Shown piece after piece: positions 53,558 through 61,892 of a stretch of DNA of 64,000 bases; position 1 is the stretch's first letter, and every line of letters begins with the position of its first letter. The stretch is taken from assembly GCA_016839585.1 (NCBI GenBank), contig JAEOTZ010000050.1, forward strand, positions 32,001 through 96,000, given 5' to 3'. This DNA is from Promethearchaeota archaeon. Its GTDB lineage: Archaea > Asgardarchaeota > Lokiarchaeia > Sigyniarchaeales > SOKP01. Position numbers and translations under genes: made by a program. The notes beneath the pieces were generated by a model. The model worked only from the letters and a program-made list of their open reading frames with translations. It made no database searches and was not told where the DNA came from.

Positions 53558-53732
53558 TTTCCTATTTTCTTTGCTTTTTATCTTTTTACAAGTAAATAAA
53601 GTATAGAGTATTTAAACTTCCCAGAAGTGCCAAATTATTAATTTTTTTTTCCCTTTTTTTTTAAATAAAGGAAGATCTTTCTAATTAGTACCCCCCATTA
53701 ATTTTTAATAAATGATTTTTCAAAGGATAAAA

Positions 53733-55637
53733 ATGGCTGAGAAAGAAAAAGTTCAGGATAAGAAAGAAAAGATAGAATATCTTGTTAAGGAGATTTCTCG
53801 CCATAGGTATCTTTATTATAATGCTCAGCCAGAAATTTCTGATGCAAAGTATGACGCTTTAGAAGATGAGTTACGAGGACTTGATCCAGATAATCCAATA
53901 TTATTTAAGATTGGTGTGGATTCTTCCGAGCTTTTCACAAAACGTGAGCATATTATACCTATGTCTTCTCAGGATAAGGTTACAAACCCCCCTGAATTTA
54001 CTAAATGGGCAAGAAAATGCAATTATACAACTTTTCTCATCCAATTTAAGTTAGATGGCATAAGTATAGAATTACAGTATGAGAATGGAGTTTTAAAGTA
54101 TGCTATTACTCGTGGTGATGGAAAAATTGGAGATGATGTATCCGCTAATGTAATTAAAATGAAAGGATTTGTTCCTAAGTTGAAGGTTTCTTTTTCTGGT
54201 GCGGTTCGAGCTGAGATCTTAATGTTTCATGATATTTATGAAGAGAAATATAACCAAATGCAAAATTGCAGAAATGCGGCAGGAGGCATAGTACGAAGAA
54301 AAGATGGAGTTGGGAGTGGAGATCTCAATTTAGTCTATTACGATGCAATTGCCTTAGATGATAAGGTTCAATTTGAAAGCGAGATTAAGAAAGTAAAGTG
54401 GTTACAAGAACAGGGATTTCCCACTATTAAGACTAAGATTGTACATTCTGTGAAGGAAGTAATTGATACCCGTGAATATGTGATGGATTCGCTTCGAGAT
54501 ACTTTAGAGTATGATATTGATGGGCTTGTTATTAAGGGAAATACTATCGATTTAGAAGATATGAAGAGAGTAAGACCAATGACTCAGATTGCATTTAAAT
54601 TTCAAGCAGAGGAGATTGAGACTGTTTTATTAGATGTAGAATGGAGTTTGAGTGGACATAATTATACTCCTGTTGCGATTGTTGAGACTGTAAAATTAAT
54701 GGGAACGAATGTGAGCAGGGCAAGTTTAGCAAATCCTAATTTAATTGACGAGTTAAAGTTGAAGATTGGCTCAGAAGTAATGATTAGCAAAAGAGGAGAT
54801 ATTATTCCAAAAATAGAGCGGGTATTAGGAACACCCTCTGATGCTAAAGATATTGTCGTTCCAGATACCTGTGAGGTATGTAAAACTCAATTAGTTAATG
54901 AAGGGACTCGATTGTATTGTCCTAATGAATTGTGTCCCAAACGGTTATACCATCGTCTTATAAAATGGATAAGTAAGCTCAATGTGAAGCATTTTAGCGA
55001 AAAGTTAATGCTCTCTAAATTATTTGATACAGGTAAGTTACAAAAAATTGTCGATTTTTATGATTTAAAAGTGTCAGATCTGACTATTTTTGAGGGTGTG
55101 AAGGAAACCTCTGCCAAAAAGGCATTGGATAATTTATTTCGGGTAAAAGAAGTTCTGTTAGCCACCTTTGTTGCTGGATTTGATATTGAAAATATGGGAG
55201 AACAATTAGTACAGAGGGTAGTAGATGCTGGTTTTGATACTTTAGAAGATATTAAAGACGTTTCCGTTTATGAGTTATCAAGGATTGACGGATTTGCTGA
55301 AACTACTGCTCACTATTTAATTAATGGGGTGAACACTCTCTATCAAGATATGTTAGATGTATTAAATACCAATAAAATTAAAATAAAGGGAAAAAAGATG
55401 GGAGGAAAGTTAGAAAGTTTGAGTTTTTGTTTTACTGGAAAGCTTAATACTATGAATCGAGCAGAGGCAGAACACCTTGTAGCTGAACATGGAGGAATTG
55501 CTAAGAGTGGGGTTGTAAAAGGGCTGTCATACTTAGTGACCAACTCCACAGAGAAGACTGCTAAATATGTAAAGGCTCAAGGACAGGGAACAAAAATAAT
55601 ATCAGAGCAAGAATTCCTTGATATGATAAATAAATAA
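53733..55637 (+). CDS. ligA: NAD-dependent DNA ligase
   Basis: YY...PEISDAKYD, KLDG adenylation site, TRGDG, RNAAGG, DIDGLVIK, zinc finger, HhH repeats and BRCT (FCFTGKL). Confidence 0.96.
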   Translation: MAEKEKVQDKKEKIEYLVKEISRHRYLYYNAQPEISDAKYDALEDELRGLDPDNPILFKIGVDSSELFTKREHIIPMSSQDKVTNPPEFTKWARKCNYTTFLIQFKLDGISIELQYENGVLKYAITRGDGKIGDDVSANVIKMKGFVPKLKVSFSGAVRAEILMFHDIYEEKYNQMQNCRNAAGGIVRRKDGVGSGDLNLVYYDAIALDDKVQFESEIKKVKWLQEQGFPTIKTKIVHSVKEVIDTREYVMDSLRDTLEYDIDGLVIKGNTIDLEDMKRVRPMTQIAFKFQAEEIETVLLDVEWSLSGHNYTPVAIVETVKLMGTNVSRASLANPNLIDELKLKIGSEVMISKRGDIIPKIERVLGTPSDAKDIVVPDTCEVCKTQLVNEGTRLYCPNELCPKRLYHRLIKWISKLNVKHFSEKLMLSKLFDTGKLQKIVDFYDLKVSDLTIFEGVKETSAKKALDNLFRVKEVLLATFVAGFDIENMGEQLVQRVVDAGFDTLEDIKDVSVYELSRIDGFAETTAHYLINGVNTLYQDMLDVLNTNKIKIKGKKMGGKLESLSFCFTGKLNTMNRAEAEHLVAEHGGIAKSGVVKGLSYLVTNSTEKTAKYVKAQGQGTKIISEQEFLDMINK

Positions 55638-57062: not shown

Positions 57063-58415
57063 ATGAAGAAATTTAAAATAAATAACTATATTACCCTAAA
57101 ATTAGAGGATGGCACTACTAATCTTTATGTAAATGGTGAGCTTTTCCGACAATGTAAATTGCTATTATTAAATATCTCGATTAATGAGGATTTCAGCCAG
57201 GTACAATCTATTGATGAGATAGCAGAAAAAATGGGTTGGACTCCTTTAGGACAGATGTCTCCACATATTAGACTTGAAATCCGAAAGAAAATCTCCCCCG
57301 TGACTGAATTTTGGGCACATTGCTCAAACATACAAGCATGGGTTGAAGATAATTATAATCCTAATATACTTCATCACAGTCTTGCCTTTCCTTTGTTAAG
57401 AAAGTTAGCTGAAACAGGAGATTTGCAAGCTAAAGCTCGATTTAAAGAGGATGTGGCAAAAAGATTAGAAAGTTCAACTCCTCAAGTTATGCTATATCTA
57501 ATTCAAGAGAGATATTTAGAAATCTTTACTAAGGAAGAATTAGAATCTTTGATCCTCAATATTGATTTTAATAATCCTTCAGAAGACGAGTATCTCAAGT
57601 ATGTTCCAAGTATTTTTACCTATCTTTATGATTATAATTTATCAAATAAAGTTAAAGTGATCTTGTTTGAGCATTTGGCTAAACAATTTTATGGGAACTT
57701 ATTTGAAGAATTAAAACAAATTCTATTAAAAAAATACCAAAAGGAGACTCAAATACTATTGGATAAATTATCTCAGGGGATCAAAAACACTAATTTACGA
57801 CGGATTAAGGAATATTTCTATTTTTTTAATATGGAAGAAAAGATCAAATTGTTTCGTGAAGCTTTATCAAGTAAGTTTTTTCATGTCTTATTTGAGTTAT
57901 TAACCGAAAATCCTAGTTTAATAGATCACCTTGAAAAAAAAGACATACCAATTCTCGTAAAAGAAGCATTTATGACAGGAAATCCCTCTGTTATATCACT
58001 CCTAGAAGATGAAGGACATTTAATTCATCTTAGCCATGAACAAATAGAAGAAATAATGGAGAATATTTCTAGTTTTGGATTGTCAAAAAATATTATAGCA
58101 GAAATAGAAGATTGGTATTCTTGGTTAGAGAAAGGATATGTACGATTTAGGAGTTGTTATATTTATAGATATGACGTACAAATACTTCAAGAAATTGAAA
58201 GAGTTTTAAATATTAAATTAATTTACACTCCACATGATATTGCGCTCTCGAACTATATGTTTGAAATTGATGATGAGGGAAGAGTATCTAAATTATTCAT
58301 AACGGACACCATAAAAAGAAAGCTTGATATTCCAGACTCTCTTGTCGAGAGAATTTATACTCTAGAAAATCTTAAAGAATTACATATGAAACATCAAACA
58401 ATTATGATTAATTAA
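57063..58415 (+). CDS. Lokiarchaeal expanded-family protein (EFWxHCSNxQAW domain, usually fused to LRRs)
   Basis: FKINNYITLKLE...YVNG..F.QCK.LLLNI...SIDE...EFWAHCSNIQAW...LAFPLLRKL. Confidence 0.75.
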   Translation: MKKFKINNYITLKLEDGTTNLYVNGELFRQCKLLLLNISINEDFSQVQSIDEIAEKMGWTPLGQMSPHIRLEIRKKISPVTEFWAHCSNIQAWVEDNYNPNILHHSLAFPLLRKLAETGDLQAKARFKEDVAKRLESSTPQVMLYLIQERYLEIFTKEELESLILNIDFNNPSEDEYLKYVPSIFTYLYDYNLSNKVKVILFEHLAKQFYGNLFEELKQILLKKYQKETQILLDKLSQGIKNTNLRRIKEYFYFFNMEEKIKLFREALSSKFFHVLFELLTENPSLIDHLEKKDIPILVKEAFMTGNPSVISLLEDEGHLIHLSHEQIEEIMENISSFGLSKNIIAEIEDWYSWLEKGYVRFRSCYIYRYDVQILQEIERVLNIKLIYTPHDIALSNYMFEIDDEGRVSKLFITDTIKRKLDIPDSLVERIYTLENLKELHMKHQTIMIN

Positions 58416-58597: not shown

Positions 58598-58933
58598 TCA
58601 TAAAACGGATGGAGAATAGCGTTTTGCTGCTCTTGTTAACCCAACATAATTATCTGAAATTTTATAGTACATTTTATCATTTATTACTTTTCTCTCTAAA
58701 TAATTATTTTTTATATAGTGGTTTAAAGAATTCACCATAGTACCGAGCACAACTGCTCCCATATAATTTTGTTTCTTCTTAGTAATCCTTATTAAATCAA
58801 GTTCAGAATGCCACTGACCATCAAGTAAAGCCATCAATATTTCATTTTTCACAGGAATCTTTATATCCTTAATTTTATTGAATAAATTTGAATAATTTGG
58901 TTTATAAAACTCATCTTCTTTAAGATCTTCCAT
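58598..58933 (-). CDS. Winged-helix protein
   Basis: EILMALLDGQWHSELDLIR...GAVVLG...YLERKVINDKMYYKISDNY. Confidence 0.65.
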   Translation of the reverse strand: MEDLKEDEFYKPNYSNLFNKIKDIKIPVKNEILMALLDGQWHSELDLIRITKKKQNYMGAVVLGTMVNSLNHYIKNNYLERKVINDKMYYKISDNYVGLTRAAKRYSPSVL

Positions 58934-59036
58934 TTTTAGATACCTATAAAACGAGTTGTAATCTTAAGAATGAATAAAATATTCAGTTATTTAACAAAAT
59001 ATATTATCACCATAACACATTTAATAGAAAAAGGAC

Positions 59037-60158
59037 CTATAAAAGATTTGGTGGGATCCCCTCATTAAAATATTTAGCACGCGTTATCCAATTTTCTGAA
59101 AATTCAGGGATCATAGCAAGTATTGAACCACCTATCCAAACAGAATAAGTTCTTTCAGTTGGTGCAATAATTCTAATAACTTGATTTTTTTTCTTTCTCC
59201 TCGCCAATTCAAGTTCTAATTCTTGGTAGATACGTGACTTAAGGTTTGGAAACATACTTGAACCCCCCGATAAAAAAATATTATTTAATAGATCAGGGCG
59301 AATATCCAAATCACAGGTTTCTACCACCTCCATGATTGCATGAGGTAATGAATCTTCTTCTAATTCTGAAGATGGATTGAATAAAAGTTCTGGAATCATA
59401 AATCGTTCCTGATTCAGTGTTATAGTAGAACCATCTGGTAAAGAATAATCTTTTGTATATTGTTCACTCCTATTTAAATCTTCCTTATAGTCTAATGAGA
59501 CAAAACAAGCTTTTTCCTTCAACACTCTGACTAATTCTCTTCTGATAGAAGAATCTACAGACCATCCAATAGATTCTAAAATTGTTTCCATATAACGAGT
59601 TAATACTCTCCCCCCAATATCTAAAATCTTTACGGCATGTTCTATTTTATAACCCTGATAAATGGGTACTATTCTGGTATTGCTATCACCAATTTCAATA
59701 ATTAAACCGGTTTGAAAACCTCCAGAATATAATGTTAGCATAGAATCTAATACTGGATAGAACGCCATACACTGATAACGTTCTAAAAAGAGCTCAAAAA
59801 TTCTTTCTAAATCATTATATGGAAATAATGGATGTATAGCGAATAATACATTAACAAGACTAGGATCTACTCGTAAGTTATAAAAGATATAGTCAATAAT
59901 ATTTTCAAAATGTTTCCAATCAACAATTATCCCCTTTTCAATAGGTTGAAATACTTTATATAAGCCAATTGATTGAATCTCATCACCTACATATAATTCT
60001 TTTTCCTCTAAATCCTTCAAACCATATTGAGTATCTAAAGATTGATATTTTGGCGTTCCAACTATAGTCAAAAACACTTGAGATGGTGTATCCTCTCCTG
60101 CAAATCCAATTTTTGAAGAAAATTGACCGATATCTAAAATAACAGTAAAATTTCCCAT
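59037..60158 (-). CDS. Asgard actin-related protein (actin family, 373 aa)
   Basis: DIG...KIGFAGEDTP..VF.TIVG.P, YVGDE, VPIYQG, GGR.LT.YM, KEKACFV, Y.LPDG, ERF.IPE.LFNP, LSGGSSMFP and ER.YSVWIGGSILA actin motifs. Confidence 0.95.
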   Translation of the reverse strand: MGNFTVILDIGQFSSKIGFAGEDTPSQVFLTIVGTPKYQSLDTQYGLKDLEEKELYVGDEIQSIGLYKVFQPIEKGIIVDWKHFENIIDYIFYNLRVDPSLVNVLFAIHPLFPYNDLERIFELFLERYQCMAFYPVLDSMLTLYSGGFQTGLIIEIGDSNTRIVPIYQGYKIEHAVKILDIGGRVLTRYMETILESIGWSVDSSIRRELVRVLKEKACFVSLDYKEDLNRSEQYTKDYSLPDGSTITLNQERFMIPELLFNPSSELEEDSLPHAIMEVVETCDLDIRPDLLNNIFLSGGSSMFPNLKSRIYQELELELARRKKKNQVIRIIAPTERTYSVWIGGSILAMIPEFSENWITRAKYFNEGIPPNLL

Positions 60159-60268
60159 ACCTTATTATAGTTTAAATTTATTTTTAAGATAAATACCCTA
60201 AATAACTATATCTAATATAATATTATATTAAGTCTAAGATATTAATTACTTTTACACTAATAAAATTT

Positions 60269-60490
60269 TTAGTGGTGTGTAATTAATTCTTTTTGCTCTT
60301 CTCTTGCATAGCCTCCTAACCCTGTTGTAGCTATAGTAACACTAATATTTGAACCTAAATCATGATATTTGAGAATAGTAACTCCACAAGAAATTAATTC
60401 ATCATCTGGATGACCAGCAAAAATAATTATCCTTTTAGGAACAACTATTGGAATTTCATTTTTACTTATCAAAAAAGGTTTATCTGACAT
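60269..60490 (-). pseudogene. 5' fragment of a PIG-L family deacetylase
   Basis: IIFAGHPDDELISCG.TI...IATTG.GG, truncated after about 73 aa. Confidence 0.75.
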
Positions 60491-60632
60491 GTAATTTACA
60501 AGTCTCAATTCTTAATTAAAAATTTTATGACACATGATGAAATAATCTATAAATTTAGAATTGTGTAATAAAATATTAAAAATGAGACAAATATAAATTG
60601 TAGAAAAAGAAATATTAGTTTCTTTGAGTTTC

Positions 60633-61334
60633 TTATTCTCCTCTCATTATCTTTTTTAATCGGTTTAATTCGTCTAACATTTCATCACGGAGAGAACTTA
60701 ATCCACCACCAGCTTTAGGAGCCATTGCAGTCATTGCTCCACCAGACGGTGTTGGAGGGCGAGCACCAGTTGGTGCCGCAGGAGGGCTGGGTCTTTTAGC
60801 AAATGAAGGTGGTTTTGCAGGTGGACCACCAGTAGTTGGTGCTTTTGGAGGAGTAGCTCCAGGAGTTGGTGCTGGAGGTAATTTTGGAGCAGGTGGTAAA
60901 TTGCCACGTATAGGAGGACCACCACTAGGCGCTTTAGGAGGAGCCCCAACAGTTGGTACTGATGGAATATCTCTCTTACCTGGACGTTTTGGAGGACTAC
61001 CGGCTATAGGGGGAGCACTAGGAGTCGCTGCTGCTGTTGCAGGTACAGGTGCACCCTCTTGACCACTTCCACTTAATAAACTAAATAATGTACTTGCAGC
61101 TTTCGTTTTTGCAGTAGTACTAGCTGGAGCAAGAACTTTTTTAGAGGAGGTACTCACAGTCGTAACTTCTTCTACAATATAAATCTCCTTTAAATCTTTT
61201 TGAGCTTTTGCTAAAGATTTAATAAAATCATTTATTCCTTTTACAGTTTCTCCTAGATCATCAGCGAGAGATGTTAAGCCTTTTTTCATAAAGTTTATAA
61301 CGCGTTCGATTTTTTTCTGTTCTTTTGAAACCAC
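60633..61334 (-). CDS. Coiled-coil + proline-rich + C-terminal WH2/VASP-like helix protein
   Basis: N-terminal amphipathic helices; about 110 aa of Pro/Ala/Gly-rich sequence (PPAPKLPPAPTP); C-terminal LRDEMLDELNRLKKI. Confidence 0.8.
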   Translation of the reverse strand: MVSKEQKKIERVINFMKKGLTSLADDLGETVKGINDFIKSLAKAQKDLKEIYIVEEVTTVSTSSKKVLAPASTTAKTKAASTLFSLLSGSGQEGAPVPATAAATPSAPPIAGSPPKRPGKRDIPSVPTVGAPPKAPSGGPPIRGNLPPAPKLPPAPTPGATPPKAPTTGGPPAKPPSFAKRPSPPAAPTGARPPTPSGGAMTAMAPKAGGGLSSLRDEMLDELNRLKKIMRGE

Positions 61335-61625: not shown

Positions 61626-61892
61626 TTGCCAAAAAAGGAACTTTTCATTAAAAGGGTGTATGAGATTGTTAATGAACTAAAAATTCCATTAATTGATGAG
61701 CGTGTATACGACAAAGTGGGTTTTAGTACGTCATCAGCAATCGCAAATGTTATCTTCAGATTTGAAGAAGATGAATCTGTAATCAGAGGGTTTCTGGGAC
61801 TTGCTGAATACTTTCATACTGTTGTGATTAAAAAACGCGATGAATTTTACATCCCACATGCCTCTATCTTGTTCCATTTGATTAGTTCATAA
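61626..61892 (+). CDS. Hypothetical protein
   Basis: AGGTGG RBS then TTG; 88 aa. Confidence 0.7.
   Translation: MPKKELFIKRVYEIVNELKIPLIDERVYDKVGFSTSSAIANVIFRFEEDESVIRGFLGLAEYFHTVVIKKRDEFYIPHASILFHLISS

Follow-up and report, generated by a model that had tools for sequence, protein, structure and literature searches.

A 233-aa proline-rich protein (PRP) is encoded in a 64,000-nt stretch of the genome of a Promethearchaeota archaeon (GenBank assembly GCA_016839585.1, contig JAEOTZ010000050.1, positions 32,001-96,000 of the forward strand). It belongs to an undescribed, pan-Asgard family of probable adaptor proteins with a portable end helix that probably serves for docking. The whole stretch is called the window here, and all positions refer to it. 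The host, a member of the Asgard archaea (Promethearchaeota), has a genome of 3.45 Mb with approximately 29% GC. We consider it likely that PRP represents the soluble version of a family of adaptors or tethers that is spread across the Asgard archaea and presents this helix. A role with actin is the leading hypothesis for the end helix, still unproven. A preliminary description of the locus had proposed a WH2-type nucleation-promoting factor that forms a module with a neighboring actin-related protein (ARP). The gene, its architecture, the conservation of its end motif, and the co-orientation with ARP within the family of the window genome were all borne out. The match to WH2 or VASP and the linkage to ARP outside that family were not found.

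The conserved end helix and its family

The listing of open reading frames (ORFs) confirmed four co-oriented genes on the minus strand. The sequence of PRP, which ends in GGGLSSLRDEMLDELNRLKKIMRGE, was as previously given. Its start codon is GTG and its stop codon is TAA, and one relative of the same genus has ATG at the same codon. The AlphaFold2 (AF2) model, built with 43 homologs, agreed with the described order of helical head, proline-rich spacer, and conserved end helix. The head is a long helix (residues 4-49) with a predicted local distance difference test (pLDDT) score of approximately 95. A weak helix (residues 74-87) covers the segment A-A-S-T-L-F-S-L-L-S-G, and the proline-rich stretch (residues 88-211) is disordered. 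The spacer differs between lineages in both length and repeat composition. Residues 212-231 form a single continuous helix (pLDDT 86-95) that includes L226-K-K-I229; the model is of the free chain, and the fold at LKKI is not final.

The C-terminal positions L215, R216, E218, M219, L220, E222, L223, R225, L226, K227, I229, M230, and G232 were invariant across the order, and L215, M219, and E222 were invariant across the phylum. The phylum-wide C-terminal consensus was [S/T]-[I/V]-x-x-L-[R/K/Q]-x-E-M-[L/M]-x-E-[L/M]-x-R-L-K-x-[I/L/F/Y]-[M/F]. The 16-residue core of the helix was 50-94% identical across the phylum. The element read as LKKI in the window occurs as LKKI, LKKL, LKEL, LREI, IKEI, LKSI, or LKRL, followed by a conserved M or F. 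Its fourth position was I, L, F, or Y, and T or V was found in no lineage compared. The end-helix profile scored 42.9 bits on PRP and 16.7 bits on the next ORF of the genome, so the motif is far beyond chance. The preliminary description had made its proposal depend on conservation of the end motif in relatives. This conservation was extreme and phylum-wide, reaching far beyond the orthologs.

At E ≤10, no Pfam family matched the whole of PRP or residues 190-233, and a Pfam scan of the first 70 residues found no domain either; HMMER filters discard many matches above an E of about 0.1, which limits negatives at this threshold. PDB sequence searches with PRP and with the motif profile returned only non-significant matches, to eS19 and to the GCN4 zipper. 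The whole-protein search returned 210 relatives, all annotated as "hypothetical protein", all from Promethearchaeota, and none with a Pfam domain. In the feature search of the ESM Atlas, the sole match was the unnamed Promethearchaeota cluster that consists of the family itself, and full-text literature searches found no description of the family.

In a sample of 301 genomes across the phylum, grouped into numbered families of which f1 is that of the window genome, the PRP family profile matched 176 genomes. In the matches from outside the order, which were ORFs of 141-573 aa, the aligned part was limited to the proline-rich region and the end helix. Three kinds of protein carried the helix at the extreme C-terminus, preceded by a proline-rich arm. 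They were soluble proteins, proteins with one N-terminal transmembrane (TM) segment and a coiled coil, and proteins with approximately ten TM segments and the same coiled coil. Pfam scans detected no domains in ten distant motif proteins. Because the coiled coil of the TM-anchored relatives aligns with the head helix of PRP, the anchored and anchor-less proteins were treated as one family.

A homolog search with residues 185-233 found no match among longer proteins. Fused forms surfaced in an exhaustive profile search of 1.84 billion representatives, for which the last 42 residues of PRP were the query. At E ≤1e-3, this search returned 78 proteins with the end helix, and all named members were from Asgard archaea. 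In one fusion type, a Ras/Roc-type small GTPase is followed by a PPPP stretch, the end helix, and a CPxC...NH...CCxC domain (P0124, P0177, and P0196, metagenomic). In other contexts, two or three copies of the helix precede the CPxC...NH...CCxC domain, or the motif occurs in a TM-PRP-TIR fusion. The protein P0123, labelled Odinarchaeota, carries three near-identical N-terminal tandem copies (residues 13-120, 42-residue spacing), separated by flexible linkers of 22 residues and followed by an unannotated helical domain. A second, degenerate copy (L-L-R-D-E-M-L-N-E-L-N-N-L-R-N-L-I) was found in the window's own genome, in a 153-aa Cys-rich-domain protein (G000:C3:22021-22479, minus strand). Since the helix recurs in TM proteins, GTPase fusions, tandem arrays, and this second copy, we regard it as a portable module.

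The CPxC...NH...CCxC domain was present in 1-7 copies per genome and only in f1 in the 301-genome sample. Its confinement to f1 in this sample ruled it out as the universal receptor of the end helix. The in-frame stop flagged in many matches to this Cys-rich domain is probably an alignment that overran the natural stop. At one locus, a second small-GTPase gene lies 2 kb from a GTPase-helix fusion (L129:7832-8965). In f21 and f24, the best actin was only 53-54% identical to Lokiactin, and neither the motif family nor a match to the MIT domain of Vps4 was found. The cytoskeletal and ESCRT set may be reduced in these two Asgard lineages.

Gene order, ARP, and the companion gene C1

The features of the locus are collected in Table 1.

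Table 1. Positions in the window and supporting evidence for PRP, its segments, and the genes next to it.
Feature	Position	Strand	Evidence
PRP gene, 233 aa, member of the pan-Asgard "proline-arm" adaptor family	60633..61334	-	ORF; 210 homologs
PRP N-terminal long helix, residues 4-49, presumed assembly/anchoring head	61188..61325	-	AF2 pLDDT ~95; homologous to the coiled coil after the TM anchor in membrane-bound relatives
PRP mid motif A-A-S-T-L-F-S-L-L-S-G, residues 79-89	61068..61100	-	A79, A80, L83, and L87 invariant across the order; weak AF2 helix 74-87
PRP proline-rich disordered spacer, residues 90-211	60702..61067	-	low pLDDT, without secondary structure
L-P-P-x-P-K-L-P-P within the PRP spacer	60873-60899	-	P147, P150, and P153 invariant
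PRP C-terminal docking helix (putative), residues 212-231	60642..60701	-	continuous AF2 helix, pLDDT 86-95; core L215-R-x-E-M-L-x-E-L-x-R-L-K-x-I-M230
C1, 88-aa gene divergent from PRP	61626..61892	+	conserved neighbor of anchor-less family members
PIG-L deacetylase remnant, N-terminal 79 aa	60269..60508	-	Pfam PIG-L positions 2-45 of 129
Divergent actin-related protein (ARP), 373 aa	59037..60158	-	Pfam Actin E 4.8e-88
111-aa ORF downstream of ARP	58598..58933	-	no Pfam match; weak TFIIF-alpha winged-helix matches

The window genome has four actin-family genes, and the best of them, on contig 10 (G000:C10:15967-17109), encodes the Lokiactin-type actin. ARP is 43% identical to this actin. Residues 5-367 of ARP match Pfam Actin (PF00022), and its best PDB matches are actins (E approximately 1e-85). 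In phosphate loop 1 of ARP (D-I-G-Q-F-S-S-K), Q-F stands where the genome's own Lokiactin has T-G, and the alignment of the two further shows Q137D, D154E, and H161R. ARP thus does not carry the canonical ATPase residues (S14/G15 loop, Q137, D154, and H161), and the changes at ATPase positions are kept in orthologs from other genera. The actin C-terminal H-R-C-F is absent, and a slightly longer D-loop was seen only in this genus. Because the substitutions are conserved in orthologs, ARP is, judged by its sequence, a genuine, constrained, and catalytically altered actin-related protein.

Among the genomes of the genus that hold PRP, ARP is co-oriented on the same contig, 129-1,096 bp downstream, in 20 of 22; in the remaining two genomes, PRP and ARP are found on separate contigs. 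The order of divergent C1, PRP, PIG-L where present, and ARP was kept in all 20 loci from eight further f1 genera, with C1 missing in three. The order PRP, (PIG-L), ARP was found in all nine sampled f1 genera. The linkage proposed earlier was therefore seen in every sampled genus of f1, and it did not extend beyond this family. The preliminary description had named missing linkage in other genomes as grounds for refutation, and outside f1 its proposal fails by this criterion. The sister family f2 has an ARP ortholog (48-56% identity) at distances from PRP of 43, 70, and 100 kb in three genomes; in the remaining f2 genomes, the two genes occupy separate contigs. In f3, C1, PRP, and PIG-L are kept together and ARP is not in the cluster. 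No clear ARP ortholog was found in f4, and among the genomes searched there was none beyond three families of one order. As the motif is phylum-wide and clear ARP orthologs are limited to these families in the genomes searched, ARP cannot, on this distribution, be the general partner of the end helix. PRP is not recognisable as a WH2 protein, nor is it dedicated to the neighboring ARP.

The 79-aa ORF between PRP and ARP matched PIG-L (PF02585) with an E of 4.5e-8, and its catalytic domain is incomplete. A full-length PIG-L gene of 248 aa occupies the position between PRP and ARP in 15 of the 20 loci of the other f1 genera and is missing in five; in f3, it adjoins PRP. In the window (60159-60508), approximately two thirds of its length has been lost, and 110 bp separate the stop of the stub from the start of ARP. 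Since the 248-aa gene is at the same place in f1 relatives, comparison of the loci identifies the stub as a decayed ancestral member of the cluster; the earlier view of a later intruder was not upheld. T-rich runs follow the PRP stop and an AT-rich, TATA-like stretch precedes the ARP start, which suggests that PRP and ARP are transcribed separately.

The 111-aa ORF downstream of ARP, earlier labelled a winged helix-turn-helix protein, had no Pfam match, and its PDB matches, to winged helices of TFIIF-alpha, were weak (E 0.4-0.7). It is present in 17 of the 20 loci of the other f1 genera, where its adjacency is not constant, and is duplicated in one genus. Elsewhere in the window, a 450-aa ORF (57063-58415, plus strand) had no Pfam family at E ≤0.1. 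The translation of a 641-aa ORF (53712-55637, plus strand) appears to resemble bacterial-type NAD-dependent DNA ligase.

C1 is the deepest conserved genomic companion of the anchor-less family members. It adjoins PRP in f1, f3, f5, f6, f7, f16, f23, and f25, which is at least eight families in several Asgard classes. In the 301-genome sample, C1 was present in f1 (62/68), f2 (6/7), f5, f6, f7 (4/4), f12 (3/5), f16 (16/19), f23 (6/6), and f25 (3/3). It was not found in f9 (0/28), f26 (0/21), f31 (0/11), f17, or f20, in which the family member is membrane-anchored. The distributions of C1 and the TM anchor are complementary, and C1 was present only in lineages with a TM-less motif protein. C1 is conserved at 33-57% identity and was modeled by AF2 as a small alpha/beta domain (pLDDT 92). 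No Pfam domain was found in it, and fold searches with its model brought up nothing convincing: all E values of Foldseek against the PDB were >0.2, the Z scores of VIA-align wide did not exceed 4.4, and the ESM Atlas gave unnamed or DUF clusters only. We infer that C1 would work with the head of the soluble form, and it may replace the membrane anchor.

Candidate partners of the end helix

The family combines a helical head, a disordered proline-rich arm of 100-130 residues, and a near-invariant amphipathic end helix of 16-20 residues. In the mechanism that we propose, the head would fix the protein in place. A membrane anchor precedes the head in some lineages, and without an anchor the head probably acts together with the 88-aa C1. 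The proline-rich arm would serve as a flexible spacer, and the end helix would be the docking peptide by which a highly conserved partner in the cytosol is captured. The core of the end helix (50-94% identity) is about as conserved as Lokiactin (67-80%) and far above the MIT domain of Vps4 (26-49%) and C1 (33-57%), so the receptor surface is probably very conserved. That some proteins carry the helix in several copies suggests a polymerising or multivalent partner.

An actin-family protein is our tentative candidate for this partner. The helix might bind the hydrophobic groove of actin in the mode of arcadin-2, ParR, and WH2 helices, a mode that would have been reached independently and not by descent from WH2. 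In f1, PRP would have been placed secondarily upstream of the catalytically altered actin paralog, which is possibly a lineage-specific client. Together with the level of conservation and the multiple copies, two further hints point towards actin: the whole of f1 keeps PRP upstream of an actin paralog, as read from the gene order, and arcadin-2 offers an analogous precedent in archaea. Taken as one statement, an adaptor whose docking helix holds an actin-family partner through its hydrophobic groove is possible, and we put it forward with little confidence.

Several results weigh against actin. Outside f1, the DNA within approximately 7 kb of a motif gene (37 genes, 480 kb in total) contained no actin-family gene. 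Elsewhere, the neighbors of motif genes are C1 or housekeeping genes; those of anchored genes encode RpiA, a PIN-ATPase-KH protein, and a tRNA splicing endonuclease, and they are uninformative on the function of the anchored genes. No profile similarity to Pfam WH2 or to any actin-binding PDB chain was detected, and the best match, which was non-significant, was the GCN4 zipper. The profilins of Loki and Odin are reported not to bind VASP polyproline (PMC8410842), which makes a profilin-recruiting role of the arm doubtful in this lineage. The text on Lokiactin co-immunoprecipitation in a preprint names gelsolins, profilin, and an Arf GTPase and, in those passages, no PRP-like protein (10.1101/2025.11.30.690169). 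According to the same preprint, Asgard actin seems to be regulated mainly by profilins and gelsolins (10.1101/2025.11.30.690169).

A wider form of the actin proposal is more speculative. The end helix would then be a pan-Asgard ligand of the actin groove, and the family would couple membranes to Lokiactin filaments or monomers through its TM or C1 forms. The tandem-helix relatives would be nucleators, and the Ras-GTPase fusions would be minimal, GTPase-switched actin assembly factors. If this were true, archaea would have in this family a counterpart, of independent origin, to the WH2, VASP, and MIM machinery of eukaryotes, or a forerunner of it in logic. The PRP family is nearly universal in Asgard archaea and unannotated, with an anchor or a small companion, a long proline arm, and a helix about as conserved as actin. 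It could be the missing adaptor of the Asgard actin system or of another conserved Asgard machine. A peptide of 20-30 residues from the end helix is a direct experimental handle on the partner. With a partner other than actin, too, a portable docking helix that occurs alike in tethers, in GTPase fusions, and in tandem arrays would mark a new interaction hub in Asgard cell biology.

The end helix might instead dock onto a conserved non-actin hub of Asgard archaea, and the actin neighbor in f1 would be coincidental. Examples of such a hub would be C1 itself or a protein that takes part in small-GTPase function or membrane trafficking. We hold the non-actin explanation, too, with only limited conviction. 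The deepest conserved neighbor is C1 and not actin, the helix is embedded in Ras/Roc GTPase fusions, and the membrane-anchored versions lie among housekeeping genes. The 37 motif genes outside f1 without a nearby actin gene fit this explanation as well. However, C1 was not found in TM-anchored lineages that keep the same helix, so it cannot be the universal ligand. The Cys-rich domain of the fusions was confined to f1 in the sample, and the neighborhoods of two fusion proteins yielded no partner or hub candidate.

Self-association through the end helix is improbable in our view; the helix would then act as a short leucine zipper, comparable to the tetramerisation helix of VASP, and would bundle copies of the family or related proteins instead of binding a different partner. 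The hydrophobic face is heptad-like, and the isolated helix was given a high AF2 pLDDT. The sole PDB profile matches were GCN4 segments (E-V-A-R-L-K-K-L, E approximately 0.5), and the VASP-type option had been raised in the preliminary description. However, E218, E222, R225, and K227 vary little or not at all across the phylum, which is atypical of zippers, in which conservation is mostly limited to the heptad pattern. One "a"-type position is taken by a conserved R/K, and the head helix is already a likely oligomerisation element. The three tandem copies on flexible linkers fit multivalent capture better than zippering. The VASP option itself found no Pfam VASP_tetra match at E ≤10 and no VASP chain in the PDB profile search.

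An identity of the end helix as a MIM1-type motif is very unlikely. Such a motif would recruit Vps4, the ESCRT ATPase, through its MIT domain, and the family would be a membrane-remodelling adaptor. The genome's own ESCRT-III protein of the Vps2/24/46 type, encoded beside Vps4, ends in E-L-E-K-E-L-N-R-L-K-S-D-E, of which E-L-N-R-L-K is common with PRP. The six conserved Asgard positions (E-Phi-x-x-E-Phi-x-x-Phi-K/R) coincide with E218, M219, E222, L223, L226, and K227, and the motif is C-terminal behind a flexible linker, like MIM1 motifs (PMC7240154). However, a profile from 15 Asgard ESCRT-III tails scored PRP at 3.9 bits, rank 43 among the ORFs of the genome, and the PRP motif profile scored the ESCRT-III tail below 4 bits. 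MIT domains and MIM1 tails vary much more than the end helix, and PRP was in no Vps4 or ESCRT-III locus examined. A Pfam search found no Snf7 match in PRP, and the two Snf7 genes of the genome are on other contigs. The family f11 does not exclude MIM1, because MIT-like, Vps4-sized ORFs were found by Pfam search in 5/5 f11 genomes.

The least probable explanation, with only a very slight chance, is that PRP is a genuine nucleation-promoting factor of the WH2 type, a homolog or equivalent of WASP/WAVE/Ena-VASP, that works specifically with the adjacent ARP as a two-gene module. Its head, proline-rich region, and end helix are in the matching order, ARP is downstream and co-oriented throughout f1, and R-D-E-M-L-D-E-L...L-K-K-I appears to resemble R-D-A-L-L-D-Q-I...L-K-x-V (the WH2 sequence as given in the preliminary description) with a 3-residue deletion. 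However, neither the whole of PRP nor its last 44 residues matched Pfam WH2 (PF02205) at E 10, the AF2 helix is unbroken through LKKI, and other lineages conserve neither the D of R-D nor the K-K-I. The helix is phylum-wide and ARP orthologs are not, PRP and ARP are 43-100 kb apart or on different contigs in f2, the unrelated PIG-L lay ancestrally between them, and separate transcription is suggested by the sequence between the genes. "WH2 plus ARP module" should therefore not be carried forward as an annotation of the window. The likenesses to WH2, VASP, and MIM1 are look-alikes among amphipathic helices, with no demonstrated relationship.

Comparison with known systems

In WASP/WAVE and MIM/ABBA proteins, as in PRP, a membrane-associated or oligomerising head comes first, then a proline-rich region, and at the end an amphipathic helix that includes an L-K-K-hydrophobic element. 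MIM/ABBA proteins have a membrane-binding head, a Pro/Ser-rich middle, and a C-terminal WH2. The tandem end-helix relatives of PRP recall tandem-WH2 nucleators. Unlike WH2, PRP has no profile match, its linker is 3 residues short and without Gly, and LKKI is inside a predicted helix. WH2 domains bind G-actin in the groove between subdomains 1 and 3. The WH2 element is an extended L-K-K-T/V after a short amphipathic helix and a non-helical linker, whereas PRP has I/L/F/Y at the fourth position and then a conserved M/F. In full-text literature searches, the only WH2-like elements met with in Asgard archaea were those of gelsolins (PMC9433394; 10.1101/2025.11.30.690169).

ESCRT-III tails with MIM1, which bind the MIT domain of Vps4 (PMC7240154), share with PRP an extreme C-terminal amphipathic helix after a flexible linker, the E-Phi-x-x-E-Phi-x-x-Phi-K/R skeleton, and the E-L-N-R-L-K of the genome's own ESCRT-III tail. 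The profile scores were at chance level in both directions, and PRP has no Snf7 core. Compared with MIM1, the PRP helix is longer, has the extra conserved hydrophobic residues L215, L220, I229, and M230, and is far more conserved than either MIM1 or MIT. The EVH2 region of Ena/VASP, with an F-actin-binding segment (G-G-G-L-M-E-E-M...) and a C-terminal tetramerisation helix that forms a right-handed tetrameric coiled coil, appears to resemble PRP in a Gly run and then L-x-x-E-M-...-L-x-R-x-K after a proline-rich region. PRP differs from Ena/VASP in having no VASP_tetra (PF08776) match, no VASP chain in the PDB profile search, and no EVH1 domain.

Arcadin-2 of Pyrobaculum, a regulator of crenactin (PDB 5LY3), has a small conserved C-terminal helix after a non-conserved, unstructured linker (PMC5173319). 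It is encoded beside the archaeal actin gene, and its 17-residue end peptide is active alone and binds the hydrophobic groove of actin (PMC5173319). By analogy, PRP has the same design of a conserved C-terminal helix behind an unstructured linker. The arm of PRP is much longer and proline-rich, its family has membrane-anchored forms and is phylum-wide, and the linkage to actin is limited to f1. A further analogy, of design only and among unrelated proteins, would be the C-terminus of ParR with ParM and the C-terminal peptide of FtsZ with ZipA and FtsA, in which, as may be the case in PRP, a short conserved peptide is carried at the end of a long disordered spacer and so offered to a cytoskeletal or membrane partner. 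ParR binds the actin-fold groove of ParM (cited in PMC5173319).

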